A stretch of 20,000 nt of DNA, from positions 178,336 to 198,335 of the forward strand of contig JAADGS010000027.1 in assembly GCA_013152275.1 (NCBI GenBank), read 5' to 3'. The notes under the pieces are model-generated. The model did no database searches. It saw nothing but the letters and a program-made list of their open reading frames with translations, and was not told where the DNA came from. Source of the DNA: Actinomycetota bacterium. GTDB taxonomy: Bacteria; Actinomycetota; Acidimicrobiia; Spongiisociales; UBA4744. Within the stretch, counting starts at the first letter, position 1. Every line of letters starts with the position of its first letter. Below are positions 2,199 to 20,000 of this stretch, one piece after another. The position numbers and the translations under genes are program-made.

Positions 2199-2503
2199 CA
2201 GTTTCGGAGCCTCTTCAGCTTCTCGGTGATGTCGGCCTTTCGTGCCCGGTACACGTTCGCCACCAGCGCGAAACCGATCGCCGCCTCGATGGCCATGGCC
2301 GTCATGACCACGATCACGAGGAGTTGGCCTTCCGGGTTGCCGCCGGTGGAACCCCACCAGAAAGCGGCGACGGCCAGGATGGTGGCGTTCAGCATCAACT
2401 CGAGTCCCATCATGATCATGACGAAGGACTGCTGGCTGAGAGCACCGTAGATACCGACGCCGAAGATGGCGGCAGCCACGACAAGGAGTGCTTCAAGGCT
2501 CAC
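2198..2503 (-). CDS. nuoK: NADH-quinone oxidoreductase subunit K
   Basis: 101 aa, three hydrophobic segments, MGLELMLNA and AIEAAIG (both conserved Glu); GTG start overlaps the nuoJ stop. Confidence 0.92.
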   Translation of the reverse strand: MSLEALLVVAAAIFGVGIYGALSQQSFVMIMMGLELMLNATILAVAAFWWGSTGGNPEGQLLVIVVMTAMAIEAAIGFALVANVYRARKADITEKLKRLRN

Positions 2504-3063: not shown

Positions 3064-3980
3064 AGTGTCAACGCTCCCGAGACGAAGACGTCTACGAGGG
3101 CAAGAGGGAGGAGCACCAGCCAGCCGAACTTCACGACATTCTCCATTCTCGGACGAGCGGTCCGATGACCGAACCAGATCATGACGGCCAGCAAGGCGAC
3201 CGTCTTGAGGATCGACCATGCCCAGCCGGGGAGCCAAGGGCCGAGAGGGCCACCCAGGAATGCGGCCGATCCCATGGCGGCGGCCGAGACGAGGAGTGCG
3301 GCTCTCGCCGTCCGCCACGCGAGCAGTGCCGTTCCCGACGTCTCGGTCTGTGAGCCACCTGCGAGGTCGGCGGCATCGGGATGCTGAAAGGGTCCCCAAA
3401 ACGCGAATCCGAGCGCCGTCAAGAGGTAGATGGGCAGGCCGAGCGGCTGGCGGAGCACGTTCCACAATTCCGCCTGGGAGCTGATGATGACTCCTACGGA
3501 CAGGGATTCGGCGGGTATGGCCGTTGTGATGAGCACCAGGGAGAACGGGATCCCCACGGAGAGGGCCAACGCTGCGAACCGGTATCCGCCGATCAGCGGA
3601 AAGATCGAGTTCGACGACCAACCGTGCAGGAAGACCGCCACCATCACCTGGACCAGGGCTGCACCGAAGAGAACGATGCCGACGGGCACGTCGGCGATGG
3701 CGAGCCCCGGGGTGAGTGGGATCGCGGTGAAGGCCACCGCCGCGAGGCCGGCGAGCAAAGCCGGTGCCAACGCCCAAGCCTCCCGGTCGGGCCGTTCGGT
3801 GACGGTCCTGCGTTGCGACATGAGGAGAGCAACGCTGCGGAAGGGGTCGAGAAGGAGCGCAGCGGTACCCTCGCGGTTCCCGGCCGCCGTGCCGGCCAAG
3901 AGTCGGTCGAGCACCGACACGATGTACACACCGGCGCCGAGGACCCCGCCCGTGAAGAGGATTGCAGTGGCCGGGTTCAC
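3060..3980 (-). CDS. nuoH: NADH-quinone oxidoreductase subunit H-like (divergent)
   Basis: GWSSNSIFPLIGGYR, SLSV..II.SQ, QPLG, PF..PDA.DLAGG..TETSG, FLGG, RPRMENVVKFGWLVLLPLAL match the NuoH pattern; N-terminal QxRxGP motif not seen. Confidence 0.87.
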   Translation of the reverse strand: MNPATAILFTGGVLGAGVYIVSVLDRLLAGTAAGNREGTAALLLDPFRSVALLMSQRRTVTERPDREAWALAPALLAGLAAVAFTAIPLTPGLAIADVPVGIVLFGAALVQVMVAVFLHGWSSNSIFPLIGGYRFAALALSVGIPFSLVLITTAIPAESLSVGVIISSQAELWNVLRQPLGLPIYLLTALGFAFWGPFQHPDAADLAGGSQTETSGTALLAWRTARAALLVSAAAMGSAAFLGGPLGPWLPGWAWSILKTVALLAVMIWFGHRTARPRMENVVKFGWLVLLPLALVDVFVSGALTL

Positions 3981-5269
3981 GCAGCTTCCCCTTCGCCGGC
4001 ACTCGGGGGAGCCGCGGCTGCCTCGGCAGGGTCCATGTCGATGCTCGCCAGGCAGGTCACCGCGTCCCCCCACTCGAGGCCGGTCAGGAGGGCAGGCAGG
4101 AGTTCGAGTAGCCGGCTCGAAGGGGTCGGTGCTCCTTGCTCCAGCCGTCCGTGGGGTCCTTCGACGACGCCGTCGCCGAATGCGGTTCGATCTGGAGCTT
4201 GCATGGCGAGATCGAGAGACTGGGTGATCTCAGCGAGCCGCTGTCTCCAGCGAGCGCGAGGGTCGCCGTCGGCGAACGTGATGGGTGTGAACCCGAGGCT
4301 GCGATAGGTGGGATCCTCCAATCTGGCGTCATCAGGAAGGCCACTCGCTCTGGCAACGGGGCCGAGACCCTCTGTCAACGAGGGATCGAGGCGACCGGCC
4401 GAACCGAGGCTCCAGGCGAAGGCGCCGCTTTTTCGGATGGCGCGAGCCAACGCGTCGACGGCGTCGTTGTCCTGGGGTGTCAACCGTGCGGCGAGCCGGA
4501 GCGCCCGAAGTCCCAGGGCTCCGAGTCCCACCAGACGCAGCGCTTCGGCCAGCCAGATCAGATGGTGTCGGGCTCGGGCCAGTTCCAGGTCGGCGAGAGG
4601 GACCGGACGGCGCAGAGCTTCTTTGAAAGGGGAGGCGATGGCGGCGGTCACGGCCGCCGGCCCGACAGAGGCTTCCTGGATGATGTCGCCCTGGAATGTC
4701 ACTCGAAGTGTCAATCCGGCGGGGAGGGCAGGAAGCCAGGGCCCCAGCGTCACCGGAAGGCGATCGAGCTGGATGCCGTCCCGGTCGGGTCCGCGTTCGG
4801 CCATCGGACGTCCGTAGGGGACACCTCCGGTCATGCCCTTGCCCCCCTGACCGTATGGCCCGACATTTCGCCATTCGGCCGGATCGATGTCCGGCAGCAG
4901 GGGTGCTTCCGAGGGAAGTGTGCCGTGGAGGAGAGCGCGGTGGAGATCCACGATGGCATCCACGAGTCCATCGACGTTCCCGGACACGACATGTTCCGCG
5001 GGAAGACCTTCGAGCGTGGTTGGCCCCCAGTGAACGGTCAGGCGAGGTGGCGACATCTGGTCGTGAACGCGACGGAGGGCGGCGATGCCGGCATCCGTGA
5101 ACGATCCCGCCACCAACAGGATGTTTGCAGGCCTGGGTGTGTCCAGCATGCTGATTTCGGTGCGCAGACGCAGATTCGCCAGGTCGTCGCGTGCACCGGC
5201 TCCCCCCACGGCGAATACCGGGACGCGAGCTCGGCCGGCGATGCCTGCCAGGAGGCCTTTCAGGCCCAT
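3977..5269 (-). CDS. Degenerate NuoB-NuoD-like fusion protein lacking Fe-S ligands
   Basis: N-terminal TPRPANILLVAG...ALRRVHDQMSPP resembles NuoB; C-terminal LGPWLP, GPVARASG..DAR, GD..AR...RLAEI.QSL, VEGPHG, PS, GDAV..LASID resemble NuoD; only one Cys in 430 aa. Confidence 0.75.
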   Translation of the reverse strand: MGLKGLLAGIAGRARVPVFAVGGAGARDDLANLRLRTEISMLDTPRPANILLVAGSFTDAGIAALRRVHDQMSPPRLTVHWGPTTLEGLPAEHVVSGNVDGLVDAIVDLHRALLHGTLPSEAPLLPDIDPAEWRNVGPYGQGGKGMTGGVPYGRPMAERGPDRDGIQLDRLPVTLGPWLPALPAGLTLRVTFQGDIIQEASVGPAAVTAAIASPFKEALRRPVPLADLELARARHHLIWLAEALRLVGLGALGLRALRLAARLTPQDNDAVDALARAIRKSGAFAWSLGSAGRLDPSLTEGLGPVARASGLPDDARLEDPTYRSLGFTPITFADGDPRARWRQRLAEITQSLDLAMQAPDRTAFGDGVVEGPHGRLEQGAPTPSSRLLELLPALLTGLEWGDAVTCLASIDMDPAEAAAAPPSAGEGEAA

Positions 5270-6162: not shown

Positions 6163-6855
6163 ATGAGTGACGACCCGAATGTGACGCTGGTGACGTCAGG
6201 CGGACCGGTCGATCGGCTGGTGGGCGCCCCGGTCGTACTCGAGGCGCGCTCGGTGATGAAGAGCTATGTCAGGGGATGGCGGAGGAGGCCGCTCAGGGTC
6301 CTTCGGGGCGCCGATCTGGAACTCCATGCGGGAGAGATCGTGGGTCTCGTGGGAGAGAACGGCTCCGGCAAGTCCACCTTCATGAAGATTCTCGTAGGCG
6401 CGCTCGATCGTGATGGCGGTGAACTCGTCCGAACGGGAACCTTTGGGTACTGCCCGCAAGAGCCTGTCTTGTATGAGCGACTCACCTGTGACGAGCATTT
6501 CGAGTTGTTCGGACACGCCTACGATCTCGATCCCGGAGTCAGCGATCGAAATCGTGACGAGATCTACGAACGGTTCGGATTCGAAGCGTACCGGGACGTT
6601 CTCGTGGAGGAGTTGTCCGGTGGCACCCGCGCCAAGCTGAATCTCGGCGTCGCGCTCCTGGCGGATCCGCAGATACTGTTGCTTGACGAGCCCTATGCGG
6701 GGTTCGACTGGGATACGTACCTGCGTTTCTGGGAGTTGACGGCGGAGCGGCGTGATGCCGGCCGTTCCGTGCTCATTATCAGTCATTTCGTCGCCGACGA
6801 GGGGCGATTCGACCGTATCGTGGAGCTGCGGGACGGTCGTGCGGTCGAGCGATGA
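6163..6855 (+). CDS. ABC transporter ATP-binding protein (exporter type)
   Basis: Walker A GENGSGKST, Q-loop CPQ, signature LSGG, Walker B LLLDEP, ISH. Confidence 0.95.
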   Translation: MSDDPNVTLVTSGGPVDRLVGAPVVLEARSVMKSYVRGWRRRPLRVLRGADLELHAGEIVGLVGENGSGKSTFMKILVGALDRDGGELVRTGTFGYCPQEPVLYERLTCDEHFELFGHAYDLDPGVSDRNRDEIYERFGFEAYRDVLVEELSGGTRAKLNLGVALLADPQILLLDEPYAGFDWDTYLRFWELTAERRDAGRSVLIISHFVADEGRFDRIVELRDGRAVER

Positions 6856-8351
6856 AGGCGACACTGCTTACCCGCCGGTATCTGCTCGAGTATGCGCGCA
6901 GACCGTTGAATCTCGTCCTGCTGCTTCTTGTTCCTCTCGTGTTCGTCGTGCTGGTCTCGGGTGCGCTCGGCGATTTCGCCAAGGTGATTGGTGGGGTTGG
7001 CGATCCTGGCCTGTTGGCAGCTCCGAGTGCCGGATGGGCGGCCGGGTTCCTTGCCGGCGTCGCCGGTTTCTTTCATGTGCTCGGCTCTCGAAATGCCGAC
7101 CGGCGGCTGGCTTCGGCGGGGTTCGGTCCTCGCCGTATCGTGACCGCTCGTCTCATCTCTGGTGTGATTCTGGCGCTCCTGGCTGCCGCATCGGCGCTCG
7201 TGGCGCTAGCGGCGCGTACCGGTCTGGCGGATCCGGTGCGAGCGATCGCGGGTTCGGTCATGTTCGCCGTCATCTACCTTGCCATCGGTGTGGCGGTCGG
7301 CTCGGTGATTCGCAACGAGGTCAACGGGTCGTTGGTCGTGATCTTCGTTTGGATGCTCGACGTGTTCCTCGGTCCGGCCATGGCCGGCGGCGACGTGTGG
7401 GTCACCCGTCTGTTCCCCACGCATTTCGTGACGTTGCTCATGCTCGACGCCCCATCCGGGCATGCGGGGTCGATCGGCGATGTGGGCTGGGCGTTGCTGT
7501 GGACTGTCGGCGCTCTGTTGCTGGCGGCCGTGTTGCTTGCATCCGCGACGAAGACACATCCTTTACACTGGTACCGTGGCGCACGTTGGGCGTCGGTCCG
7601 TCGGGCCTGGGAGGGTCTGCGCTACGGGATGCGCGAGTACCGACGCAACATCGCCATGTGGGTGCTGCTGGCGGTGCTGCCGGTCTTCTTCATCTCTCTC
7701 AGTTTCGTCATCACTCCCGATCAGCCTGCTCCTGTGGAGTTGTCCGAGGGAGGCGTGACCACGGCCCGGTTGATCTCCATGACGGACCTCCACGGCGCGA
7801 TCATGGTCCCGATCACCATCGCATTCTTGGCAGGGTTGGCCGGGCTGTTCGTGATACAGGCGTCTTCGGAGGCTGATCGCCGGCTGGTGATCGCCGGGTT
7901 CCGAACCCGCGAGATCTTGGTGGCGCGGCTCGGAGTCATCGGTCTCGCCGGTCTGATCGCGACCGGGGTGTCCCTGGCGATCACGGCGATCGACTTCACA
8001 CCAGGCTCCTGGATGGGGTTTACCGTCGGTAACGTGCTGGTAGCGGTGACGTACGGGCTGGTGGGGGTGTTGATCGGTTCACTGTTTGGGCGACTTGGAG
8101 GTCTCTATCTGATGTTCCTCCTGCCCTTCATCGATGTTGGCCTCGCACAGAACGTCATGTTCTCCGCCGTTCCTCCTGCCTGGGGTGCGTTCCTGCCGGC
8201 ACGGGGCGCGATGCGCGTGCTCGTCAACGCGGCATTTACGCCGAGCTTCGACCAGATCGGCAATCTGCTGCTCGCTCTCGGCTGGGTGGTAGCCCTCGGA
8301 TTGGTGGCTGCCCTGGTGTTGCGCCGCACGGCCGGGGTCCAGAGCACCTGA
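6852..8351 (+). CDS. ABC-2-type permease with two fused, duplicated membrane domains
   Basis: ATGA overlap with the ATPase; hydrophobic; internal repeat LAGVAGFFHVLGSRNADRRLASAGF / LAGLAGLFVIQASSEADRRLVIAGF. Confidence 0.88.
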   Translation: MKATLLTRRYLLEYARRPLNLVLLLLVPLVFVVLVSGALGDFAKVIGGVGDPGLLAAPSAGWAAGFLAGVAGFFHVLGSRNADRRLASAGFGPRRIVTARLISGVILALLAAASALVALAARTGLADPVRAIAGSVMFAVIYLAIGVAVGSVIRNEVNGSLVVIFVWMLDVFLGPAMAGGDVWVTRLFPTHFVTLLMLDAPSGHAGSIGDVGWALLWTVGALLLAAVLLASATKTHPLHWYRGARWASVRRAWEGLRYGMREYRRNIAMWVLLAVLPVFFISLSFVITPDQPAPVELSEGGVTTARLISMTDLHGAIMVPITIAFLAGLAGLFVIQASSEADRRLVIAGFRTREILVARLGVIGLAGLIATGVSLAITAIDFTPGSWMGFTVGNVLVAVTYGLVGVLIGSLFGRLGGLYLMFLLPFIDVGLAQNVMFSAVPPAWGAFLPARGAMRVLVNAAFTPSFDQIGNLLLALGWVVALGLVAALVLRRTAGVQST

Positions 8352-8609
8352 CCGGCTCCAAAGGCTGGATGAGCGATCCGCGAGGAACGCAGGGCCATAT
8401 CCGACGGTTACGCATTCCGGGCCGTCGGACAAGAGGGAAGCTTCGCGAGCACACTGCCACACGACCGCACCGGGAAGAACGCCGAGGTGGATGGGTGAAC
8501 GTGGAGGGACAAGTGTCGAGAGAAGGTGTGGTTGTCGCGCTTGCTACGGCCGATACCCTCAGACCCGCCGACTGTCATGAGTCCGCTCGCTTTCGGACTT
8601 CACGATTCC

Positions 8610-9113
8610 TCAAGCATTCTCCGTCCCCTCGCATTTCGGGCCTCGCAGTGGTTCATCGATCGTCTCTGGGCCATGAGGAGGCCCCGTGATCACGGACGCG
8701 GTGTCCACCACGACGGCCCCGTCGACGATCTCGACCGCGAAGCGATCCAGGCCTCGTGGGGCGGGGCCTTCTCGCCACTCTCCGACCCGGTTGAACTTCG
8801 AGCCATGACACGGGCATTCGAACTCACCCGAAGAATCACACCACGGCACCCTGCATCCAAGGTGCGGGCACTTCCACCAGAGTGCCACGGTCTCACCTTT
8901 GTCGGTGGTGAGGTATCCGCGCATGGCGTTCACTTCGGTGACGTTGTCCGTCGGCACGCCGTTGGCCGGCCCCGCATTCACTATCTCGCCGAACCCGCCG
9001 GTTTTCGACGGCTTGAAGATGTCCCAGGTCGTCCAGATGCCCGCAACACTCACCAGCCCGAATCCCCACTTCCAGGCCCTCGTCAGCAGCTCTCTCCGGT
9101 TGATCTTGCTCAT
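8610..9113 (-). CDS. Rieske [2Fe-2S] protein with twin-arginine signal/anchor (QcrA/PetC-like, stand-alone)
   Basis: INRRELL N-terminus, CPHLGC and CPCHGS boxes, GPAPRGL. Confidence 0.93.
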   Translation of the reverse strand: MSKINRRELLTRAWKWGFGLVSVAGIWTTWDIFKPSKTGGFGEIVNAGPANGVPTDNVTEVNAMRGYLTTDKGETVALWWKCPHLGCRVPWCDSSGEFECPCHGSKFNRVGEWREGPAPRGLDRFAVEIVDGAVVVDTASVITGPPHGPETIDEPLRGPKCEGTENA

Positions 9114-9584: not shown

Positions 9585-10052
9585 TTACTTCCCGTGGGAG
9601 TGAGGGGTCGGCCGCTTGTGGACATGCCGGGCGGCCGCAGCACCTCTGACCGACTCGTGATGAATGATGGTCTGACAGCGATTGGGGTCGGTGCAGGTCG
9701 ACGGATCGAGGCTACGAGCCTGCTCCGCCAGAATGGCGAGTTGTCGTCGGGTCTTCTTCAAGGCTTTGATGTGCGCATCCAGGTCGTGCATGTGGCGCTC
9801 GAGCAGTTCGAGCACGTGGTGACAGGTCGTTTCACCTCTGTCACGAAGATCGAGAATCGAAGCGATCTCCGTGAGCGTCAGGCCGGTGGCCTGGGCATCC
9901 TTGATGAACAACAGTCGGTCGACGGAGCCTGTGTCGTACATACGGTATCCGTTGGGAGCCCGGTGAGGAGCCGGCAGGAGACCTATGTCTTCGTAGTACC
10001 GAACTGCCTTGGTCGAGACTCCGGCATGCCGGGCGAGTTCTCCGATGGTCAT
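9585..10052 (-). CDS. Heavy-metal-responsive MerR-family transcriptional regulator (CadR/ZntR/CueR-like)
   Basis: MTIGELARHAGVSTKAVRYYEDIGLL..P.R..NGYR.Y HTH; Cys in TCHHV and CTDPNRC; His-rich C-terminal tail. Confidence 0.95.
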   Translation of the reverse strand: MTIGELARHAGVSTKAVRYYEDIGLLPAPHRAPNGYRMYDTGSVDRLLFIKDAQATGLTLTEIASILDLRDRGETTCHHVLELLERHMHDLDAHIKALKKTRRQLAILAEQARSLDPSTCTDPNRCQTIIHHESVRGAAAARHVHKRPTPHSHGK

Positions 10053-10306: not shown

Positions 10307-10415
10307 GCCACCGAATCATCTCCTTGCACATGGGGCAGCTTGGCTGGATCTCGTCGGAGTGGCCGCCCTCGAAACCGGCCGGGCAGAGTAGGCCGGGAGA
10401 GCCTCGCGAGGTACG

Positions 10416-10430
10416 CTACGCAACGTAGTA
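10416..10430. promoter_or_regulatory. Putative BlaI/CopY-family operator
   Basis: Palindrome CTACG-CAA-CGTAG(TA) upstream of the blaI-like gene, resembling TAC...GTA operators of this family. Confidence 0.45.
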
Positions 10431-10510
10431 GTGCAGTGTCGAAGGTCCGGCCTCCTCGGGTTCTCGCGGGAGACCGGATGCATATCGGCGAAAAGGGAAG
10501 GAATGGCGGC

Positions 10511-10864
10511 ATGGCCAGAGAACCCATTCTCGAGAATGCCGTGATGCTGATGCTTTGGCGGGAGGAAGGTCCTCTGACGCCGCGTCAAGTGAAGGCTCGG
10601 CTCGATGAGACCCATCCGGTGGCATACACGACGGCGATGACTGTTCTGATGCGACTGTGGAAGAAGGGCCTTCTGCGGCGCTATCGCGTGGGTCGAGCGT
10701 ACGCGTACGCGCCGACCGTGGGACAGGCCCAGCATGCGGCTCAGCGTATGGAAGGGATCCTCAGAGGAGTGAACGAACGGGCGGTCGCGTTGGGCCGGTT
10801 CGTGGAGCAGCTTTCGGCGTCGGACCGGGAGGAGCTGATGCGGATCCTGAGCGCCGATGAGTGA
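10511..10864 (+). CDS. BlaI/MecI/CopY family transcriptional repressor
   Basis: LENAVMLMLW..GPLTPRQV...VAYTTAMTVLMRLWKKGLLRR..VGRAYAY.P winged HTH; start could be 10478. Confidence 0.92.
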   Translation: MAREPILENAVMLMLWREEGPLTPRQVKARLDETHPVAYTTAMTVLMRLWKKGLLRRYRVGRAYAYAPTVGQAQHAAQRMEGILRGVNERAVALGRFVEQLSASDREELMRILSADE

Positions 10865-11792
10865 GATCCTGTTGGTCGCTTCCCTCGTGCTGCTCGGCAC
10901 ACCGTTTCTGCTGAGCCGTTTCGGGCATCGTATCGCCGCAGCCGAGCGCACACGGCTGATGGCCGTATCGCTCGCCGGTGGACTGGTGTTCCTCGAGCTC
11001 GATCTCGTGTTGACGGCCTTGCCGACCGTCCTGCGCTCATTTCGCCTGACAGGTCTCGCCTCTGCGTGTGAACGACTTGTCGGACACGTGTTGGGTGGGG
11101 GGCCGATTGTGGGATGGGTCGTGTTCGCCATGGCTCTGCTCCTGCCGGTATCGGCAATCGTGACGAGCCTGAGATGTCGAACGCGGTATCGTCGTCTGCG
11201 TGCCGATCCGTGGGTCGGGACACATCGGCCATATGGCGAGCATGAGCTGGTCGTGCTGCCTTCGGCGGAGATGGTCGCGATCAGTGTTCCCGGCCGGCCC
11301 GGGCAGGTGATTCTCTCGGAAGGTCTGCTCGATACTCTGGCACCGGCAGAGCTGGATGCGGTGCTGCGGCACGAGGGGGCACACCTCGATCTTCGACACT
11401 CGAGGTATCTTCTGCTCGCCGCCGTCGTGCAGTGCGCCGTGGGATGGCTTCCGACGGTCCGGGGGAGCGTGGGCAGCCTCAGGCTGTCGGTGGAGGAGTG
11501 GGCCGATGCGGTCGCAGTTCGAGATCTGGGCACCAGCAGACCCGTCGCAGATGCTTTGCGCTCGTTGGTCTTTGCCTCGCTCTTTCCACACGCGGCTTCG
11601 TTCTCTGCCGCCGAGACGATTGGTGAACGTCTCGAGGCCCTCGAGCACGGTGAGCCTCGGAAGGCCCCCCTGGCTCGCCTGGCCGCCTATTCGCTGATAG
11701 CGCTGCTGTGGCTGGGGGCAGGCGGATCCGTAGCGACATGGTTGACACATGCCCGTGGATTGGTCGGCATGACGCCGTACTGTCCTCTTTGA
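10857..11792 (+). CDS. M56/M48 (BlaR1-like) membrane zinc metallopeptidase
   Basis: TM segments, ILSEGLL..L...ELDAVLRHEGAH (HExxH), EEWAD; coupled to the BlaI-like gene. Confidence 0.9.
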   Translation: MSEILLVASLVLLGTPFLLSRFGHRIAAAERTRLMAVSLAGGLVFLELDLVLTALPTVLRSFRLTGLASACERLVGHVLGGGPIVGWVVFAMALLLPVSAIVTSLRCRTRYRRLRADPWVGTHRPYGEHELVVLPSAEMVAISVPGRPGQVILSEGLLDTLAPAELDAVLRHEGAHLDLRHSRYLLLAAVVQCAVGWLPTVRGSVGSLRLSVEEWADAVAVRDLGTSRPVADALRSLVFASLFPHAASFSAAETIGERLEALEHGEPRKAPLARLAAYSLIALLWLGAGGSVATWLTHARGLVGMTPYCPL

Positions 11793-11879
11793 GGTTCGGT
11801 GCCGCAGCGGCCAGACGCATCCGCGAGGAGACCGGAAGCCGGACCGTGTTGACGCAACCGACCCGTGGACGGCAAGCCG

Positions 11880-12420
11880 ATTCGCCAAACGTCGATGACG
11901 ACTCGACTAGAGCCGAAGCTGCCGGTTTCGGGTTGGGCCGGCACGCTCCCGGCGGTGGCTGTCTTCGCCGGCCTTCGAATCGACGACCCGGCCCGTCTGG
12001 AGGGGGTGTCGGTGTGGATGAGAAACGCTTCCTCAACGCCCCGTCTACCTATTGCACAACGTCTACGACCCAGATCGTCGACCTGGTGGATCGTCACCGC
12101 CTGTTGGATGTGATCGAAGGCCGTTCCCGTGACGCACTGGACGCCGGGCTCACCGGACGGGGAGACTGCCAGTGTGGTCGTGTCCGCATCGCCACTTTGG
12201 ACCCGGCAGCCGGATACCGCAAAACCTGGTCGATTGCCTCGGCGTCGCCACCCTGATCGTGGATCGTTTCCATGCGATATGCCACTCGAATCGGGCGGGC
12301 GACGAGGTGTGTCATCGAGTCCGGTCACCAAACCTTGGGACATCGGGGTCGCAAGACCGACCCGGCGTATCGGTCGTGACGGGTCCTATCGAACGGAAAG
12401 ATAACGACTCACCGGAGGCC
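11880..12420 (+). pseudogene. ISL3-family transposase remnant (frameshifted, truncated)
   Basis: Motifs spread over several frames: VGVDE, TQIVDL...LLDVIEGRS, LDPAAGY, IVDRFH, LGHRGRKTDP; boundaries approximate. Confidence 0.8.
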
Positions 12421-12746
12421 ATTTCGGACAGATGCGCTCGTCATCCACCGCCAAAGATCCTGACGGCGAGGGTGTTGCCGCTCGGGACGGTCGAACTCGA
12501 AGCGGGTGTCCGCGATGCCGGTCCTCTCCCGGCGGGTCGGTGCTCGGCGGTGGCGATCGAGGACAGAGGCTGCCTGAGCTCATTACTGGGGGCACCGGGG
12601 AGAGGTGACGTCACCGTTCCGCCTGGGATTGGTGTTGCCGCAGGGTGCCGTGTCGCTGCGGTTGGTTCGAACAAACCAGTCGGTGTGGGCGCGGAGCGGT
12701 TCAATCTGCTGATAGTGTTGTTAGTTCCGCTAGCCCACGGGTGGTC

Positions 12747-14696
12747 GTGAGGGTTCGTGTTGCGCTGGTGTTGAGTCTGCTGGTGGCGGTGCAGCTGCTG
12801 CCGGTACCGGGAGGGGCTGCCGTTGAGAGCCCGGTTGTGTCGCGGGTTGGTGGTCGTGTCGATGGTGGTGGGGTTGTTGGTGTGTCGGCCGTGTCGATGC
12901 CCGGCGATCTTCCGGTCGAGGTTCAGGGTGATGCCGGTTCGGCTCCTGTGGATGCTTTCCGACCGAATCCTGAAAGCTTGAAGCCTGGCTGGCGGACCGG
13001 GGTGTTCGAGATTGCTGTCCCTGATGGTGGCGGCGAGGTGCGCGTGTCGGGGTCGCCTGTGCGTCTTGTGGCTCCGGCGGGGTTGGTCCCGAGCGGGTCT
13101 ACGGCTCGTGTCGAGGTCTTTGATCGTGGTGCGGTCGGGAGTGTTTCACCTTTCGGGGCTGCAGTCTCGGTGGGGTTTCGCGACGCTGCGACGCAGTTGT
13201 CGCCGACTGGGCGTTCGGGGTCCTACGGGTGGGCGATCTCGAATCTGGCCTACGGGTGGGAATCGGCCGAGCCGGTACCGGTCATCGCTGGGGCATCCTA
13301 TGAGGTTGGCGGATGGGTGCGTGGCGAGATCGACGCGGCCGAGTCGTTCGGGGCGTGGATCGTTCGTGCGTCGTTCCTCGATGCTGGCGGTGAAGTGACC
13401 GGCCACGTCGATGTGGCCAGAGGCGACCCGGGATCGTTGAGCGACCGGTGGGAACGGGTTGGCGACCAGGTCACAATCCCTGATGGTGTCGTGTCGGTAC
13501 GGGTCGAGTTGTTCAACTACCTCAACGGCGGGTGGGTCGCGTTCGATGACACGACCGTATCGGCGGTCTCGGACGCGTCGGTGTCGACCACCTACGGTTT
13601 CGGTTCCGGTGCGGTGGCCGTCGGTGTCGATGCAGATGTCTCCTACACGTTCGGGGATCATCTCGGGTCGGTGGTAGCCGCGTATCGTCGGTCGGATGGG
13701 CGAGTGTCGCGACGTTTCTTCCTCCCCTACGGGCAGGTCCGTGCGTCCGATACGATGCCGACCGACCGTAGCTTCACCGGTCAACACGCCGACGCTACCG
13801 GCCTGTTGTACCTGCATGCCCGCTACCTGGACCCGACGATCGGCCGGTTCATCCAGCCAGACGTCCTGATCCCGGACGTAGCCGCCCCCCAATCGTTGAA
13901 CCGTTACAGCTACGTACTCGACGACCCGATCAACCACACCGACCCGACCGGACGTCAGGGGTGGCCTGTGGGCGAGCGCGACCCGCAGATCGAGACTCGG
14001 GACTGTAGAGGGTCGGGGGGTTGCGGGTTGCTGGTGGTTGGTGTCCACGGCGGGTTCGGATGGGCCCGGGTGGCGTATATTGGTGCGCTTCGCCGTACCG
14101 CTGTGTCACGGGTAGCCGCCGCCGCCGGGGTGATGGTTGCCGGTGCGGTTGCTGTTGAGGTGGCTCCTGCGTTGGCTGCGCTCGTACCGGACGCGGCCGG
14201 GGCCGTCTCGGCTGCGGTCGATAACGCCCTGATCCGCATCCTTGCGAGGAGCACTGTCGCAACGGCGCAGGCCACAGGCTGGATACGACACCTCCTCGGA
14301 GCCGACACCACCACAATCGAAGAACAAACCCTCGCCACAAACACAGCAGACGACCTGCTGGCCTTGCCCGGCAGACAGGTGGATGCTACTTGGGGTGTGA
14401 ACACGTATCGGCATGGCGGCACGATGACGACGATCGAGCACATCAACTATCGGCATGCCTGGGACACCGGGTTTTCGAATGTGAGCCGTTTCGCCGAAGG
14501 GACTAGCGCTCGCCAGATTCAGGGTCTTGTCGACGACGCGCTGAAGTACGGCACGGTGAGTGGGAATGGGACCAGCGTCCTGTGGGACGCTGGTCGGGCA
14601 CTGGGGGTCGATGCTGCAGGCAACACCGCTACCGGTGTGCAGGTCTACATCCGAGACGGGATCATTCAGACTGCCTTTCCTGTGGGTGTGCCGTAA
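12747..14696 (+). CDS. Short Rhs-repeat-associated-core polymorphic toxin with signal peptide, CBM-like domain and EndoU-like C-terminal toxin
   Basis: Hydrophobic N-terminus (RVRVALVLSLLVAVQLL); DHLGS, PYG, FTGQ..D.TGL.YL.ARYLDPTIGRFIQPD, LNRYSYV.DDPINHTDPTG; tip with EHINYRH..SRF...IQTAFP; start uncertain (12741 or 12747). Confidence 0.88.
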   Translation: MRVRVALVLSLLVAVQLLPVPGGAAVESPVVSRVGGRVDGGGVVGVSAVSMPGDLPVEVQGDAGSAPVDAFRPNPESLKPGWRTGVFEIAVPDGGGEVRVSGSPVRLVAPAGLVPSGSTARVEVFDRGAVGSVSPFGAAVSVGFRDAATQLSPTGRSGSYGWAISNLAYGWESAEPVPVIAGASYEVGGWVRGEIDAAESFGAWIVRASFLDAGGEVTGHVDVARGDPGSLSDRWERVGDQVTIPDGVVSVRVELFNYLNGGWVAFDDTTVSAVSDASVSTTYGFGSGAVAVGVDADVSYTFGDHLGSVVAAYRRSDGRVSRRFFLPYGQVRASDTMPTDRSFTGQHADATGLLYLHARYLDPTIGRFIQPDVLIPDVAAPQSLNRYSYVLDDPINHTDPTGRQGWPVGERDPQIETRDCRGSGGCGLLVVGVHGGFGWARVAYIGALRRTAVSRVAAAAGVMVAGAVAVEVAPALAALVPDAAGAVSAAVDNALIRILARSTVATAQATGWIRHLLGADTTTIEEQTLATNTADDLLALPGRQVDATWGVNTYRHGGTMTTIEHINYRHAWDTGFSNVSRFAEGTSARQIQGLVDDALKYGTVSGNGTSVLWDAGRALGVDAAGNTATGVQVYIRDGIIQTAFPVGVP

Positions 14697-14929
14697 TGGG
14701 TGTCTGTCTGCTGGATCGGTTCTTCGACGAGGAGTGCACGTCATATGTGCGTGATCTGCTGCTGGAAGCAATGGGCCGTAGCTCCGGGACTGAGTACTTC
14801 ACCTTCAATGTGTTCAACGTCCTGATAGATGCTGACCGCGGCGTTGTCACCGTTGAGGACGAATTGGATCCGGCGGCGTCCTGCACTACCTCGCGTGGAT
14901 CCTTCGTGTCGCGTTTGCAGGCGGTCTGA
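14696..14929 (+). CDS. Putative immunity protein 1 (77 aa)
   Basis: TAATG overlap with the toxin stop; small and acidic: MGVCLLDRFFDEEC...FTFNVFNVLID...VEDELD. Confidence 0.75.
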   Translation: MGVCLLDRFFDEECTSYVRDLLLEAMGRSSGTEYFTFNVFNVLIDADRGVVTVEDELDPAASCTTSRGSFVSRLQAV

Positions 14930-14933
14930 GGAC

Positions 14934-15536
14934 ATGCATCGGTACGCCGGTGGAGGTTCGGTCCGGCTGCCTGAGTATGCAGGTCTCTTCCGAGTCCTGG
15001 CTATCTTCGTGTTCATTGCCATCTGGCTTGGCGCTCCTGTTCCGAGTTCCGCTGCTGGACGGGCCACCGATGTTTCGCCGGCGCCCACCTGTGCCTACGA
15101 CGACTGGGCGCCAACTTCCGCACCTACGACGAATGGCGTCGCCAGCCTCGCGGATCAAGTCGTTCGCGGCCCCAGCGAGGTCCAGGGACACCTCTACGAC
15201 GTCTCTGCTAACTCCGTTGCCACAAACGCGCTACTCACACCAGGCCGACTTGCGGATGATGTCGCGGAGGCTGTTGGGGGAGTTGCCAAGCCCGCAACGA
15301 GCGGCACCGGCCAGGTGATCACGATCCCTCAAGGGAACCGCCAGATTGTCATCCGCATCATGGAGGAGGGTGGCGGAAGAACGAACTACTACCGAGTCAG
15401 TGTTGCAGGCAAGGAGGCCCTAACCGTCATGGGCGAGGCTTCGGTGGACAGGGCTCTGACGCACATACCGATCGGTGAGAGCTCTCTCGACGACATTCTT
15501 CGGCTCGTCAACCAACTTGCCGGTGGTGGCGGATGA
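14934..15536 (+). CDS. Cassette toxin 2: signal-like segment + YD/ATN module + putative RNase tip (THIP motif, Ntox30-like)
   Basis: FRVLAIFVFIAIWLGAPVPSSAAG; GHLYD..ATN; tip VIRIM...YYRVS...THIP; start uncertain. Confidence 0.7.
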   Translation: MHRYAGGGSVRLPEYAGLFRVLAIFVFIAIWLGAPVPSSAAGRATDVSPAPTCAYDDWAPTSAPTTNGVASLADQVVRGPSEVQGHLYDVSANSVATNALLTPGRLADDVAEAVGGVAKPATSGTGQVITIPQGNRQIVIRIMEEGGGRTNYYRVSVAGKEALTVMGEASVDRALTHIPIGESSLDDILRLVNQLAGGGG

Positions 15537-15862
15537 CTGTGCTCAACCGGATCTGGGGAGGCCGCCTGACACAGCTACGCGTCGATGCTGCCGTTCACAG
15601 GGTGCGCCTGGTCATATCCACGGTCACTGGCGCTGTGGAGGACGTCTGCGAGATCGTCTGTTCCGAAGTCCGCGAGATGCGCCTGTTCGATGAGAGCATG
15701 TCGGTGTGGGATTATGTTGAGATCACGGCTGCCTCAGCTAGGCCAATGCCCGATGGCTCCATGGTGCTGGAGTTGACGATGTGGACTGAGGAGGCTGGGC
15801 TGATGATCCGATGCGGCGAGATCACAGTTGACGGGGAGGCACTGTCATTCAACGGCTGCTGA
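15533..15862 (+). CDS. Putative immunity protein 2 (109 aa)
   Basis: ATGA overlap with toxin 2; small, acidic, beta-rich pattern. Confidence 0.72.
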   Translation: MTVLNRIWGGRLTQLRVDAAVHRVRLVISTVTGAVEDVCEIVCSEVREMRLFDESMSVWDYVEITAASARPMPDGSMVLELTMWTEEAGLMIRCGEITVDGEALSFNGC

Positions 15863-15873
15863 CATGGCTCAGA

Positions 15874-16410
15874 GTGTTCTTGTTAGGCGTGGTCGCCGCA
15901 GGCATCCTCCTTTTCGACCCGTGGGCTACGGCTGCCGGCGCGAACCCGATCGTCTCTCAGTCACCGGCTCTGGATGCGTGTGGTTACGATGCCCTCACAC
16001 GTTGTGATGCATCTACGACGGTTTCAACGGCTGACCTTGCGGTTCAGCCTGCCACCTCACCCTCCGGTGAGGTGGGATACGTGTACGACTCTCCCCGTTT
16101 CTCCCATGCCACAAACGGGGCAGAGATCCCTGAGGTCATCTACCGAGGAGGAGGTAGGAGCCCCTCGAATCTGACGTTGCGTGAGGGCGAGGAGGCACTG
16201 TCATTCCGGAGCTCGTTGTCAAACCCCTACCCGTCTGGCCGGCAGCCGGTGTTCCGGCCGGGACGCGAGTACATCGGGATCGATACCTCTGGGCTTCCTC
16301 CGGGATCGGTTGTTGTGGACAACGTCCCGCAGGGGCATGTCTCAGTGTTCGTGGATGATGTCGACCTTCTTCGGTCGCTGATCGTTGAGAAGGGTCGGTT
16401 CCCGAAGTGA
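15874..16410 (+). CDS. Cassette toxin 3: signal-like segment + YD/ATN module + ADP-ribosyltransferase-like tip
   Basis: Hydrophobic N-terminus ending ATAAGA; GYVYD..ATN; tip IYRGG..SPSNLT.R...LSF...GHVS, resembling the R-S ART fold; start uncertain. Confidence 0.68.
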   Translation: MFLLGVVAAGILLFDPWATAAGANPIVSQSPALDACGYDALTRCDASTTVSTADLAVQPATSPSGEVGYVYDSPRFSHATNGAEIPEVIYRGGGRSPSNLTLREGEEALSFRSSLSNPYPSGRQPVFRPGREYIGIDTSGLPPGSVVVDNVPQGHVSVFVDDVDLLRSLIVEKGRFPK

Positions 16411-16859
16411 GCGATTCGTCAGACAGTGTTGTCGAGGCAATCCGATGTCTTGTCCGGGTCGCAGAGATCTTCGGCGACTTGGCCTCGTGGCTTCGACAGA
16501 TCGAGGGAGCGACTCGAGTGATGCAGCCGTGTTCCATGACCACGCTTAGGCGACGCGAAGACGAAGTGATCGAGTATGGCATCGGCGACGGGGTCGGGAT
16601 CGACTGGTACGCTGATGTGGAGTTTACCAATGGCAGAGCGCTGAGCTTCGGCCTGGAGCTGAGCTGGGACGGGGGCGAATGGCGGGTGGTGCCCGGGATC
16701 CGGATCACCCATCGAGCGGGCCAAGATGATCTGTTCGACCTTGCCGATCGCTACGCGGTTGACGATGTTGACATGTGCAACTCACTCCTGGGAGCTGCTC
16801 GCGAACTAGCCAGCTTGCGGGATGAAGCGTTGGAGTTGTTCCGGTCATGGTCCGGGTGA
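16407..16859 (+). CDS. Putative immunity protein 3 (150 aa)
   Basis: GTGA overlap with toxin 3; acidic. Confidence 0.72.
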   Translation: MSDSSDSVVEAIRCLVRVAEIFGDLASWLRQIEGATRVMQPCSMTTLRRREDEVIEYGIGDGVGIDWYADVEFTNGRALSFGLELSWDGGEWRVVPGIRITHRAGQDDLFDLADRYAVDDVDMCNSLLGAARELASLRDEALELFRSWSG

Positions 16860-17458
16860 TCCCCTCCCGGGCCTTTGCACACTCTGCCGGGCTCGTCGTT
16901 ATGGCTGCTGCGGTGCTGGGGCTCACGGCCCTTTCCGGATCGGCCTCCGCTGAGGCGCGGCTGGACGTTTGGACGGTTACTCATACGCACGACGACACAG
17001 CGACTGCACCTATGGCTATGACGACTCGCGGCGTCGACGTTGCAGAGCGGCCAGTTCCGTCCTCCTCAGGCGGTCTCGGATTCACCTACGACCCTTCCGG
17101 CCATTCCGATGCCACAAACACAGCAGGGGTGGTTGATGATGCGGCCAATGCTGCGCAAGGTGCTCGGCTGCGAGAGCACTTGAGGCTGTTGGAGCAGTAC
17201 GGTGCGGGTGGGGTACGCGAGTTGGCCGATGGCCGTATCCGCTACTACAGCGAGGTGACGATAGCATCGAAGCCAGGCGAGATGGCTGGTGCGCGTCTGG
17301 TACGGGAGTGGAATCCTGCGACCGGCAACTACCGAACGTGGTACGAGACGCTTGACCACGCCGGCCAGATACGCCAAGTCCATCCATATCAGCCGTACTC
17401 GTCGTACCACTACATGTTCATGTTCGATGAGTTCGGCAACTATGCGGGGCGCGGGTGA
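16847..17458 (+). CDS. Cassette toxin 4: signal-like segment + HD/YD/ATN module + unassigned (possibly nuclease) tip
   Basis: VVMAAAVLGLTALSGSASA; GFTYD..ATN; tip GRIRYY...GEMAG.R.VREWNP.TG..RTWYET.DH.G.IRQV.P; start 16847 or 16856. Confidence 0.72.
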   Translation: MVRVIPSRAFAHSAGLVVMAAAVLGLTALSGSASAEARLDVWTVTHTHDDTATAPMAMTTRGVDVAERPVPSSSGGLGFTYDPSGHSDATNTAGVVDDAANAAQGARLREHLRLLEQYGAGGVRELADGRIRYYSEVTIASKPGEMAGARLVREWNPATGNYRTWYETLDHAGQIRQVHPYQPYSSYHYMFMFDEFGNYAGRG

Positions 17459-17736
17459 TGCGCAACTTGGTACCGTCACCGCCGTCGCAGGCAGATATCC
17501 GGGACATGCTGCGGGGGCTCCTCGCTGGCAGTCTGTCGCGCGAGGAGGTTTCGAGATGGGCTCAGCGGTGGGTCGGGGCGGTAGATCCAGGGATCGACGA
17601 CCCTGTTGTGTGGCGTGCGCTGACACGGCTAGGCGGCGTCGACCTGCGCGCCAGCACTGACGAGTACCTGTACTACGACCCCGACTTTCACTCGTGGCTG
17701 GATGAGGTGGAGGATGCTATCGATCCTGGCGACTAG
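17455..17736 (+). CDS. Putative immunity protein 4 (93 aa)
   Basis: GTGA overlap with toxin 4; helical, acidic (SREEVSRWA...YLY...DF.SWL). Confidence 0.75.
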   Translation: MMRNLVPSPPSQADIRDMLRGLLAGSLSREEVSRWAQRWVGAVDPGIDDPVVWRALTRLGGVDLRASTDEYLYYDPDFHSWLDEVEDAIDPGD

Positions 17737-18331
17737 GAATCCGCGACCTGCAGGTGTTCTCAACCGCTTGATCGGGATCGCGCTTCTCGTCGTCCTTTTC
17801 TTGGTCGTAGCCCCACCTACGATGGCCGGACTCGACTACGACCTCACGGGTCCTGTTGATGGGACTGTGATGGTTTCGGCCACTGACCTGCCTGTTCAGT
17901 CGGTTCCCTTCCCGGGCAGTAATGCCGGACACGTCTACGACTCCCTCCACTATCGACATGCCACAAACGAGACAGCTGGCGTTGGGACAAGCATCGTCAA
18001 GTACGAACCGTATCCACCCGCCGCGACGAGTCCGGGAGGGTTCTGGGGAGCACCTGTTCGGAACAGGCTTCGCCCCGGAACGATCATTTCGCGCTACGGC
18101 GGGGAGGGCGGGACGTACGCCTCACCGGCGGGAACACCGTTCTCTGCCAGAGCGCTCCCGCCAGCGCAAGAAGCACTGGGTGAGAGCCTCTACACAGTCA
18201 CACAGCCGCTCGACGTCGATGCCGGCATCGCCGCCTGGTGGCAAGGAGGTGGCGGAGGGATCCAGTACAGACTTCCGGCCTCGGTGTCGGAACTCCTTGA
18301 GAGCGGATTCCTGAAGAGGCTGGATCTATGA
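17702..18331 (+). CDS. Cassette toxin 5: signal-like segment + YD/ATN module + TNT (tuberculosis necrotizing toxin-like NAD+ glycohydrolase) domain
   Basis: L.PGTIISRYGGEGGTYASPAGTPFSARALPP...Y.V..PL.V.AG..A.W..GGG.QY..P.SV.ELLE.GFL matches the TNT pattern; start uncertain (17702 or 17714). Confidence 0.88.
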   Translation: MRWRMLSILATRNPRPAGVLNRLIGIALLVVLFLVVAPPTMAGLDYDLTGPVDGTVMVSATDLPVQSVPFPGSNAGHVYDSLHYRHATNETAGVGTSIVKYEPYPPAATSPGGFWGAPVRNRLRPGTIISRYGGEGGTYASPAGTPFSARALPPAQEALGESLYTVTQPLDVDAGIAAWWQGGGGGIQYRLPASVSELLESGFLKRLDL

Positions 18332-18570
18332 ACCGCCGCGATCTTCGACGGTGCGCTGAGGCCGAGGGTATTCGAGAGACGGCCTACAGTCTTGAGGGAG
18401 GACTGCCACCCGAGACGTACGTGCTTGCGCTCGAGGAGGGCGGATGGTCCGTCTACTACTCCGAACGCGGCTCACGCGTTGATGAGCGCCACTTCGATAC
18501 AGAGGACGAGGCATGTTCGGACCTGCTGCTTCGACTCGTGGAGGACCCAACCACGCGTGAGCGGCGATGA
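18328..18570 (+). CDS. Putative TNT immunity protein (Imm59-like, 80 aa)
   Basis: ATGA overlap; WSVYYSERG....F.TEDEAC pattern of small proteins found next to TNT toxins. Confidence 0.8.
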   Translation: MNRRDLRRCAEAEGIRETAYSLEGGLPPETYVLALEEGGWSVYYSERGSRVDERHFDTEDEACSDLLLRLVEDPTTRERR

Positions 18571-18706
18571 CGTTCTCTGGTGCCGACAGCGAGCGCATGG
18601 CCACGCTCCGGTGGGTCGGAGCCGTGCCTGCTCCGATCTTCGTGATGAAGGATGACCCTACGCCCTTCTTTGGCCGTACCGATACCTCGGTCGAGGACCA
18701 GACCCC

Positions 18707-19324
18707 ATGATGGCGGCCGTGCGGTCGGGTCGGTCGAGGTGGCAGTCGTGGCCGCTGTTCGTGGCTGTTCTCGTGTTCTCTGTACTGGCTGGGCCGGTGG
18801 CGAATCCTCAGTGGGCGTACGGCTACGACGGGCCTTCCTCGATCTACGACGGCCTGGGCACCGTCGCGTCAGTCGATGGACCCATCGGCGGTAGCCCCGT
18901 GCTTTCGGCGACCGTGGACGCCGATCGGTACTCCGGGTTCATCCACGACTCCTCCGGCTACGCATCTGCCACAAACGGCGCAAGAGGTGTTCGTGGACTG
19001 TCTGGTGCTGGCGACGAATTGGCTCAGGGTGGCGTCTACGCGCTACGTGATCCCGTCACGGGGCAGGTCGTGCGAACGGGACGAACGAGCGATCTGATTC
19101 GGCGTGCAGGTGAGCACCTACGTGATCCGGCGCTGGCCGACTACGAGTTCGAGATCATTGCTCGAACTGACATCTATGCACAGCAGCGAGGGCTTGAACA
19201 GCTCATCCACGAGGCGTACTCGCCTCCTCTGAATCTGATCCGGCCAATCAACCCGACGAATCCGAGTGTGACTACCTACTTGGACGCGGCGGCTGAGTTC
19301 TTGTCGACATACGGAGGCGGCTAG
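18707..19324 (+). CDS. Cassette toxin 6: signal-like segment + YD/HD/ATN module + GIY-YIG (Tox-URI-like) nuclease tip
   Basis: WPLFVAVLVFSVLAG; GFIHD..ATN; tip GGVYALRD...VVRTGRT.DL.RR..EH...RGLEQ...LN.I.PI. Confidence 0.8.
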   Translation: MMAAVRSGRSRWQSWPLFVAVLVFSVLAGPVANPQWAYGYDGPSSIYDGLGTVASVDGPIGGSPVLSATVDADRYSGFIHDSSGYASATNGARGVRGLSGAGDELAQGGVYALRDPVTGQVVRTGRTSDLIRRAGEHLRDPALADYEFEIIARTDIYAQQRGLEQLIHEAYSPPLNLIRPINPTNPSVTTYLDAAAEFLSTYGGG

Positions 19325-19798
19325 ATGACGAAGAAGCTGCCCTATACCAATGGTGATCTTGTTGCCGTGCCGCTCCGCGAGGGGCTTGGATATGCAGTCG
19401 GTCTCATCGTGGCTCATGACGGTCTGGGTGGGGTGATCGGCTACTTCTTCAATCTGCGGTTTGATGCGATTCCGACCGTTGACGCGGCAGGGGCTTGGGG
19501 GCGCTCTGATGTACTGAGGGTGATGCGTTTCGGCGATCTGGGGTTGATCCGGGGCGATTGGGTGGTTCTCGGCGAGCATCCTGAGTGGCGACCTTGTGAT
19601 TGGCCGATTCCTGCCTTTGGGAGACGCGAGCCTACGGGTAGGGCATTCAGGGTCACTTACTCGGCCGAGGATCTTCGCGGGCCAGCCCGCGAGGAACTGA
19701 TCGACGACGATGAGTGCGACCGTCTGCCTCGAGACGCCCTCAGCGGCTCGGGTGCTGTCGAGCGAGTTCTGACCCATCTGCTATCCGTGGACACCTAG
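19325..19798 (+). CDS. Immunity protein, Imm26-like (157 aa)
   Basis: Abuts the toxin 6 stop; Y..GDLVAVPL..G.GYAVGLI, FGDLGLI.G.W.VLG. Confidence 0.8.
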   Translation: MTKKLPYTNGDLVAVPLREGLGYAVGLIVAHDGLGGVIGYFFNLRFDAIPTVDAAGAWGRSDVLRVMRFGDLGLIRGDWVVLGEHPEWRPCDWPIPAFGRREPTGRAFRVTYSAEDLRGPAREELIDDDECDRLPRDALSGSGAVERVLTHLLSVDT

Positions 19799-19800
19799 CC

Positions 19801-20000
19801 ATGACCCCGATTGTCGGAGCTGTCTCTCCAGTGCCACGTCGAGGTCAGAGCTGCGCGGCTTGGTGGACGGTGACGGTGATGCTGCTGAGTTTCGTTTCCC
19901 TGCTCGCAGTTTCTCCCGCGGCCCACGGGTCCAACCAGGCTGCACTTGGGTACTACTACAACGGCTCGATTCCAGACGCTGCGCCTACGACAGTTCCTGC
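19801..20000 (+). CDS. Cassette toxin 7, N-terminal part (runs off the window)
   Basis: Manual translation MTPIVG...WWTVTVMLLSFVSLLAVSPAAHGSNQAALGYYYNGSIPDAAPTTVP: signal-like segment, then YN-x8-TTV in register with cassettes 2 and 3. Confidence 0.72.
   Translation, partial: MTPIVGAVSPVPRRGQSCAAWWTVTVMLLSFVSLLAVSPAAHGSNQAALGYYYNGSIPDAAPTTVP

Follow-up and report, generated by a model that had tools for sequence, protein, structure and literature searches.

The window analysed here is a stretch of 20,000 nt that forms the final 20 kb of contig C64 in the genome (3.07 Mb, 64% GC) of an Actinomycetota bacterium. Six WhiB genes exceed the cut-off in this genome, in agreement with that phylum, of which WhiB is a marker; of 14 controls, Corynebacterium alone had a match. 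The same stretch is contained in hydrothermal vent metagenome runs, with no RNA run among the runs listed as containing it. Towards its end the window carries an Rhs gene followed by an array of small toxin genes, and the subject of this text is a short DNA site at which the variable C-terminal toxin domains (tips) of both kinds of gene are joined to the sequence preceding them. The array starts with an Rhs open reading frame (ORF) of 683 aa and an ORF of 77 aa, continues with five pairs of a leader–toxin gene and a putative immunity gene, and ends in a sixth leader that is truncated by the contig end. The features are listed below; boxes are short TACGAC-type motifs within the leaders.

12645..14696, + strand: Rhs parent gene, 683 aa from the first GTG, with a signal-like N-terminus, the Rhs core and tip 1
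14334..14348, + strand: core site 1 inside the Rhs gene, GCCACAAAC-ACAGC-A, without upstream boxes
14696..14929, + strand: putative immunity gene 1, 77 aa, start overlapping the stop of tip 1, no family
14934..15536, + strand: c2, leader and tip 2, 200 aa; boxes at 15096, 15125 (out of frame) and 15195; core 15219-15233
15533..15862, + strand: putative immunity gene 2, 109 aa, ATGA overlap, weak YxiG match under the cut-off
15874..16410, + strand: c3, leader and tip 3, 178 aa; boxes at 15985, 16014 and 16084; core 16108-16122
16407..16859, + strand: putative immunity gene 3, 150 aa, GTGA overlap, modelled in complex with tip 3
16847..17458, + strand: c4, leader and tip 4, 203 aa; boxes at 16988, 17017 and 17087; core 17111-17125
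17458..17736, + strand: putative immunity gene 4, 92 aa, TGATG overlap, no family
17702..18331, + strand: c5, leader and TNT-family tip, 209 aa; boxes at 17837 and 17936; core 17960-17974
18328..18570, + strand: putative immunity gene 5, 80 aa, ATGA overlap, no family
18707..19324, + strand: c6, leader and nuclease-like tip, 205 aa; boxes at 18845 and 18944; core 18968-18982
19325..19798, + strand: immunity gene 6, Imm26 family, 157 aa (Pfam PF15428, E 1.8e-06, over the cut-off)
19801..20000, + strand: c7, leader truncated at the contig end; boxes at 19957 and 19986

The Rhs core of the parent gene is recognized by TIGR03696 (E 1e-19, 70.8 bits versus a cut-off of 32.5, residues 360-436), and its Rhs-core motif is the sole one that a regular-expression scan finds in the genome. 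The true start of this ORF probably lies later than the first GTG. The parent protein, 683 aa long and consisting of the core part only, is short compared to the Rhs frames of more than 2000 aa in two other genomes, G033 and G043. When contigs of four metagenome runs (X1 to X4) were aligned to the window, those of X1 and X4 diverged from it at 13530 into other upstream DNA, so longer or different Rhs versions exist. The five complete cassette toxins measure 178-209 aa and their downstream partner ORFs 80-157 aa. The original prediction for this array, made from the DNA letters, stated that every toxin overlaps or abuts its immunity gene, that most cassettes nearly abut the previous one and that the toxins lack Rhs-core homology. 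All three statements hold: the six tip/immunity junctions overlap or abut without exception (TAATG, ATGA, GTGA, TGATG, ATGA and TAGATG), the gaps between an immunity gene and the next leader are 4, 11, -13, -35, 136 and 2 nt, and TIGR03696 matches only 12645-14696. A promoter search returned no sigma-70-like promoter. In c7, two boxes that are 29 nt apart predict, as a -123/-94 pair, a core at 20080, and one X1 contig continues the array for at least 886 nt past the window end.

A repeat finder returned a single family with five copies in the window. The Rhs gene and all five complete cassettes join their tip at the identical nonamer GCCACAAAC, followed by five variable bases (the pentamer) and an A, designated +14. 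From the 22 copies of GCCACAAAC in the genome, six are located within 4.6 kb, on one strand and in one frame, read as ATN, where 0.012 would be expected. ACA makes up approximately 10% of the Thr codons, and the three core codons jointly have a probability of 0.034 per site, a rough estimate based on the codon usage of long ORFs. All 17 sites, drawn from six loci, have the A at +14, a base that played no part in their selection. It occupies the third position of codons for Ala, Leu, Ile, Thr or Arg, within tips that are unrelated to one another. The frequency of A is 64/595 at other third positions in the tips and 20/120 at +14 of chance matches to the pattern (at least 120 matching stretches). 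Moreover, none of 38 family proteins has a residue at this position that an A-ending codon is unable to encode, versus 6-10 of the 38 at each of the six positions that follow. Upstream of the core, TACGAC-type boxes are found at exactly -123 and -24 in the five complete window leaders as well as in the leaders of G033 and G043, where the -123 box was no search criterion, and four of these seven leaders have an additional, out-of-frame box at -94. The boxes are restricted to leaders, with none at the cores of Rhs genes, and elsewhere in the window's genome no further leader site was found. Between the Rhs gene and the leaders, 14-18 of the 60 upstream nt are identical and the exact shared run is 9 nt (16 nt in one pair); compared with each other, the leaders have 25-35 of 60 nt near the core in common. 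Conservation at the tip joint acts at the DNA level, the leader carrying a recombination site that it has in common with the Rhs gene.

Sequence comparisons point to this core site as the place where the Rhs gene and the leaders exchange tips. Tip 1 of the Rhs protein is 87.5% identical to the tip of a leader protein, P0025, and tip 2 is found behind other leaders with 91% (P0037) and 89% (P0038) identity, all of these alignments beginning at ATN. A common leader can likewise precede different tips, as in c6 and P0018 (86%) and in L198 and P0029 (98%). At the DNA level, c6 and locus L213, which have the same tip behind another leader, are identical at 71 of 150 nt upstream and at 302 of 346 nt downstream of the pentamer. 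In the metagenome contigs, two joints link parts that are separate in the window. The first fuses the Rhs gene to tip 3 (14333->16108) in X1 and X2, with a short side of 21 nt that, together with the 9-nt core, can be inferred to correspond to a 30-nt contig overlap. The second fuses leader 3 to tip 1 (16119->14346) in X3, with a short side of 122 nt. They are the two reciprocal products of the removal of one 1774-bp stretch. Among the loose ends listed, those at 15228, 15234, 16116, 17969 and 18976 bring other tips behind leaders 2, 3, 5 and 6, and those at 15219 and 17103 place tips 2 and 4 after other left sides; the five new right-hand ends all keep the A at +14. Because X1 contigs break at or next to cores, a tip, its immunity gene and the next leader stay together. 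The same leader and the same tip have each been seen with different pentamers, and in the few cases available, in contigs, the pentamer came from the left partner in some joints and from the right one in others. In X1, contig depth, which is no copy number, is approximately 36 for units 1-4, 16 for the Rhs–tip 3 joint and 13-17 for units 5-6, a hint at reordering rather than loss. X3 also has a 10-nt loose end at 13057, which contains GCCACAA.

The pattern is probably explained by site-specific exchange at a site embedded in coding sequence, through a CTnDOT-like reaction and with leaders that are translated. Nine shared bases plus background identity between the Rhs gene and the leaders would be too little for RecA. 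The mobile unit would run from core to core and comprise a tip, its immunity gene and the next leader, i.e., 849-1008 bp in the window. The Rhs gene would supply a bare, attB-like core and thereby the loading position, and the leader boxes at -123, -94 and -24 would be arm-like. Excision would lead to a circle in which a leader is fused to its own tip. Subsequent integration at the Rhs core would put the new tip onto the Rhs protein and leave the old one behind the leader that came in. As in CTnDOT-type tyrosine integrases, the pentamer would be a coupling sequence derived from either partner; for IntDOT, an excerpt of the literature describes a conserved dinucleotide and a 5-bp variable coupling sequence (PMC2817482). 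By analogy, we infer a reaction of the tyrosine-integrase type that proceeds through a circle. With its start codon, signal-like helix and disordered linker, the leader would turn the displaced tip into an open, translatable gene. Translation of that tip would keep the overlapping immunity gene translated and direct the tip to Sec export.

The layout of Rhs gene, core and tip, followed by an immunity gene and by leader, core and tip, is also found in G033, G043 and G634, which belong to another family of the same order as the window's genome, and at locus L198. At L213, there is a leader cassette without a parent Rhs gene. The layout is rare: a strict pattern detects it in 3 of 401 genomes of the order, it was confirmed in three of 201 genomes of the G033 family, and it was not found in two genomes of the same genus as the window's. 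A profile built from seven leaders retrieved 34 proteins among 1.84 billion representatives, 32 of which have the leader layout and two of which are unrelated (P0022 and P0023). A set of 39 family proteins leaves out these two, P0017 (no ATN), the window duplicates P0003 and P0035, and P0039 and P0041, which have a variant junction. The latter two are divergent leaders with tip 6, with the junction residues VAPG and VAPQ in place of ATN, which suggests, at the level of protein sequence, that related site families occur in other lineages; with P0041 as query, no further leader relatives were found. Searches with the DNA pattern gave two real sites out of 23 in metagenomes and none out of four in viruses, and a scan of the genome contigs gave at least 120 stretches, none of them real among the matches listed. 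A phylum-wide profile search added only G929, a chance match, as was G353, and none of three weak class-level profile matches that were inspected carries the core. Two further observations concern Hint domains. A leader cassette in G033 (L167, reverse complement 6692-8392) is frameshifted; behind it lies an Rhs remnant with a Hint domain, ending just before a core, and P0027 has a Hint domain after the core.

At the protein level, it had been predicted that toxins 2-7 have a hydrophobic N-terminus, usually after basic residues, and that the leaders differ in sequence. The hydrophobic stretch is clearly there. The best 11-residue Kyte-Doolittle mean is 2.6-3.7 in the six leaders, versus 0.75-1.96 in the first 45 residues of the six immunity proteins, and in the five complete leaders the most hydrophobic stretch is always in the toxin frame. 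Start codons and in-frame hydrophobic helices are present in all six window leaders, a basic n-region in five of them. The leaders are indeed divergent, but they are not unrelated, given the boxes at fixed spacing and the identical 9-nt junction, and they resemble neither the N-terminus nor the core of Rhs. An in-frame hydrophobic helix is also found in 39 of 39 profile-selected family proteins and in the four leaders that were found through the DNA pattern alone. The label 'signal peptide' is based on hydropathy and on one low-confidence AlphaFold model, that of c2 (three sequences, mean pLDDT 55), which has a helix at residues 16-31 and a folded tip at 103-197, with a low-confidence stretch (33-99) between them; for c3 the predicted model has a pLDDT of 33. 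A fold search with the low-confidence c2 model gave a best Z of 7.9. The linker after the helix is predicted to be disordered in that same model, with no obvious receptor-binding domain, and the small forms have no evident delivery domain. The signal-like segment is located on the upstream side of the -123 box, its length is variable, and all four pattern-found leaders have it in frame; it is thus probably a second, protein-level function of the leader, one that would ensure translation of displaced tips and coupling of their immunity genes and hold the tips outside the cytoplasm.

These protein features raise an alternative, namely that the array is a battery of independently Sec-exported mini-toxins, in which YD..YD..ATN is a protein motif for processing or uptake and there is no dedicated DNA site. 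The in-frame helices in the 39 profile-selected proteins and the four pattern-found leaders would fit such a battery, and so would the spacing of the boxes, which is a whole number of codons, and the presence of TNT, colicin E5, colicin D, REase-7 and WHH/colicin DNase tips. It is nevertheless an unlikely explanation, because a protein motif leaves the invariant synonymous positions, the A at +14 under five different amino acids and the out-of-frame box unaccounted for. Furthermore, the same core is present in Rhs genes that have no leader, and the apparently disordered linker offers no obvious domain for receptor binding, although the model behind it is of low confidence. Export may still be a second function beside the DNA site.

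Several points weigh against site-specific exchange by a dedicated enzyme. The site lacks clear inverted-repeat symmetry. The joints are assembled contigs from one study (X1-X3), and X1 may be the source sample; the Rhs–tip 3 joint has a very limited short side, and the X3 joint equally fits a 5-nt microhomology. The joints may reflect old strain differences rather than ongoing shuffling, and contigs cannot separate circles from reordered strains. In the family, the first box, as [YHFC]D, stands 41 residues before ATN in 33 of 39 proteins and the second at -8 in 35 of 39, counts that are partly circular because the 39 proteins were profile-selected and the presence of both boxes was a search criterion for L198 and L213. 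One core in L198 (L198:2629) has no leader and lies 36 nt past the previous stop, and a leader in G634 (L269:1548) has a frameshift and degenerate boxes; in both cases this resembles decay of older units. With regard to translation, c3 has no basic n-region when read from its first start codon, and the few leader variants in the population (two synonymous, five non-synonymous) do not favour coding constraint. Finally, the enzyme: no recombinase is present in the window, and none was seen by eye among the long ORFs in approximately 35 kb around the G033 and G043 loci. For an integron integrase, the best TIGR02249 score in the window's genome (G000) is 66 bits versus a cut-off of 265. XerC/D are the only tyrosine recombinases clearly common to G000, G033 and G043, and a comparison of six genomes revealed no tyrosine recombinase clade confined to carriers.

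The recombinase may act in trans or be located beyond the contig end; as the latter truncates the array, an integrase gene may be unassembled. Unlinked integrases do exist, none of which could be tied to the site, and the flanks of the tyrosine recombinase genes contain no TACGAC cluster. A copy of GCCACAAAC close to an integrase gene on contig C83 is ordinary coding sequence. On the same contig, the region at G000:C83:49250 has tandem TTCCTTGACA/TTCCTCGACA repeats, probably arm sites of another island, next to an integrase gene and a tRNA-like gene. Direct repeats of CTTCTACCG, spaced by 12 and 21 nt, flank an island integrase clade (L154 in G000:C21, L160 in G000:C3 and L284 in G634:C188; 77-83% identity between G000 and G634 over the matched part), with a tRNA-like gene adjoining in two cases. 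These repeats look like arm sites; they have only CTAC in common with the leader boxes.

It is also conceivable, if rather improbable, that the same site is used by another chemistry in trans: the host XerC/D, a single-strand recombinase of the integron or HUH type, or an RNA-guided enzyme of the IS110 type. The status of XerC/D as the sole tyrosine recombinases clearly shared by the compared carriers favours the first of these, and yet the site does not match the dif layout. The core ends in AAC, like the integron R box. Against a single-strand mechanism, the leaders have no shared hairpin, eight of nine folding no better than shuffled sequences (z -0.2 to +1.3; -4.4 in the remaining one), the leader region has no Rfam match, no IntI was found in G000, and Y1 HUH transposases were found in none of five genomes. 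IS110 transposase matches occur in three of four carriers, G033 being the one without; over the five genomes they are present in four, including the non-carrier G001, at loci without the site motif. Large serine recombinases were found, among the five genomes, in G000 and G001 but not in the carriers G033, G043 and G634.

With regard to the tips, the cassettes are, as far as can be predicted, polymorphic toxin/immunity pairs of an Rhs polymorphic toxin locus, which comprises a parent with an Rhs core and variable C-terminal tips with adjacent immunity genes. Tip 5 matches the TNT family (Pfam PF14021, E 1.9e-24). Tip 6 has a T5orf172 match just under the cut-off and is presumably a GIY-YIG-like nuclease; through P0041 it also matches an Rhs-annotated plasmid protein. 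Tip 2 shows 34% identity to an Rhs protein encoded by a Bacillus plasmid, and tip 4 is 40-53% identical to five plasmid records, one with an Rhs annotation, whereas tips 1 and 3 have neither a family match nor a plasmid match. A model of the complex of tip 3 with immunity protein 3 scored 0.75, versus 0.01 for the best control, with at least 70% contact agreement between runs and partner pLDDT values of at least 73. The mark applied to this score is reached by 51 of 78 solved complexes and by 2 of 108 mismatched pairs, and the model supports binding of tip 3 by its putative immunity protein. In the wider family, five of 23 scanned proteins have tips above the Pfam cut-off (colicin E5, colicin D, REase-7, colicin DNase and PT-HINT), and most of the 23 have no Pfam family over the cut-off. 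A search of the ESM Atlas gave no usable match.

Some known systems resemble the array in part. Integrons combine the integrase IntI, an attI site and palindromic attC sites, and their cassettes stand behind a promoter with a privileged first position. Like integrons, the array consists of small, seemingly reordered cassettes with one privileged first position. Unlike them, it has no IntI and no attC-like hairpin, and it gives in-frame fusions instead of whole genes behind a promoter. The other comparisons draw on excerpts of the cited papers. In rhs/cdiA orphan arrays, a parent gene is likewise followed by co-oriented tip/immunity pairs, and tips move between orphan and parent; this swapping is explained by homologous recombination via a circle, which is itself a proposal, and an integrase is not known (PMC2935791), and Salmonella orphans keep 522 bp at 95% Rhs-core homology for it (PMC3967940). 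In the present array the homology is 9 nt and the junction is a gapped DNA motif; none of the five cassettes has an Rhs-core match. Although classical displacement of C-termini by homologous or microhomology recombination, with inherited shared bases and leaders that are decayed N-termini of parents, is the accepted model for rhs arrays (PMC2935791, PMC3967940) and would suit the similarity of the leaders to each other near the core, it is very unlikely here, since Rhs gene and leaders share 9 nt plus background identity, the conserved pattern is gapped and extends into unrelated tips, and the leaders are unlike any part of Rhs. The original prediction had also set the array apart from classical silent orphans, and this stands. 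Such orphans usually have no start and no export signal (PMC2935791, PMC3967940), whereas every spare tip here is preceded by a start codon and a signal-like leader, predicted to be translated, a trait that extends to the wider leader family.

The CTnDOT/IntDOT system (PMC2817482) has in common with the array a short conserved core, a 5-bp variable sequence and arm-type sites on the mobile partner only, here in the form of arm-like boxes. It differs in its site sequence and in that the units described here are non-autonomous, approximately 0.9 kb in size, without a clear inverted repeat at the site, and joined in frame so that proteins are fused; a tyrosine integrase encoded by the element was not found within the units or nearby. 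The rAID arrays of Bacteroidales (PMC12247911) also contain short genes for interbacterial conflict with repeated motifs, and are thought to be assembled by a tyrosine recombinase. They consist of orphan immunity genes with intergenic motifs and an adjacent recombinase gene, in contrast to toxin tips, a coding motif and no adjacent recombinase gene in the array. MafB of Neisseria (PMC4287609, PMC3482391) has a signal peptide, a constant N-terminal part, a variable tip, downstream cassettes with immunity genes and an optional Hint/BIL domain, so that the likeness to the array is one of architecture. MafB differs by its globular DUF1020 domain, the accompanying mafA and cassettes without that N-terminus, compared to a divergent, apparently disordered leader for each cassette here, and DUF1020 had no match in the window ORFs or in 23 family proteins. 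Altogether, the locus is an rhs orphan array in content and a CTnDOT- or integron-like cassette system in its exchange, and it lacks defining traits of each. No account of such a system was found in searches of full-text literature that includes few subscription journals. The suggestion that the array might be a distinct polymorphic toxin class is correct insofar as it concerns polymorphic toxin/immunity pairs. Because the site is common to the Rhs gene and tips are exchanged there, the array is better seen as a store of spare tips of an Rhs system than as a toxin class apart from Rhs.

Mobile elements occur around such arrays. An ISL3 fragment lies upstream of the array (window 11708-12256), transposase-like ORFs adjoin the arrays in G043, L198 and G634 (L166, L198 and L269), and insertion sequence remnants flank such loci. 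The remainder of the window contains other genes for which no link to the array was seen (282-5269 on the - strand, 6163-8351 on the + strand, 8610-9113 and 9585-10052 on the - strand, and 10340-11792 on the + strand). They encode membrane-bound complex I/hydrogenase-like subunits, an ABC-2 transporter, a Rieske protein, a MerR regulator and a BlaI/M48-M56 peptidase pair.

Beyond site-specific exchange as such, a further-reaching proposal can be made more tentatively. It is possible that a dedicated recombinase runs an integron-like toxin carousel in living populations and thereby reshuffles tips onto the Rhs protein at an attachment site embedded in coding sequence, in which the attachment-site arm doubles as signal peptide and linker and the stored tips are secreted mini-toxins with expressed immunity, which would be a new kind of system. 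The defined 15-nt site, the candidate arm boxes and the predicted junctions make circle formation and the enzyme directly testable. As most of the 23 scanned family proteins have no Pfam family over the cut-off, the leader profile can be used to retrieve new toxin/immunity pairs. A recombinase able to join reading frames by means of nine shared bases could be a useful tool. If the proposal is true, a site that encodes an export signal would keep immunity genes expressed and stored tips usable, two difficulties of orphan arrays that it would resolve together, and site-specific in-frame gene fusion would be joined to polymorphic toxins.

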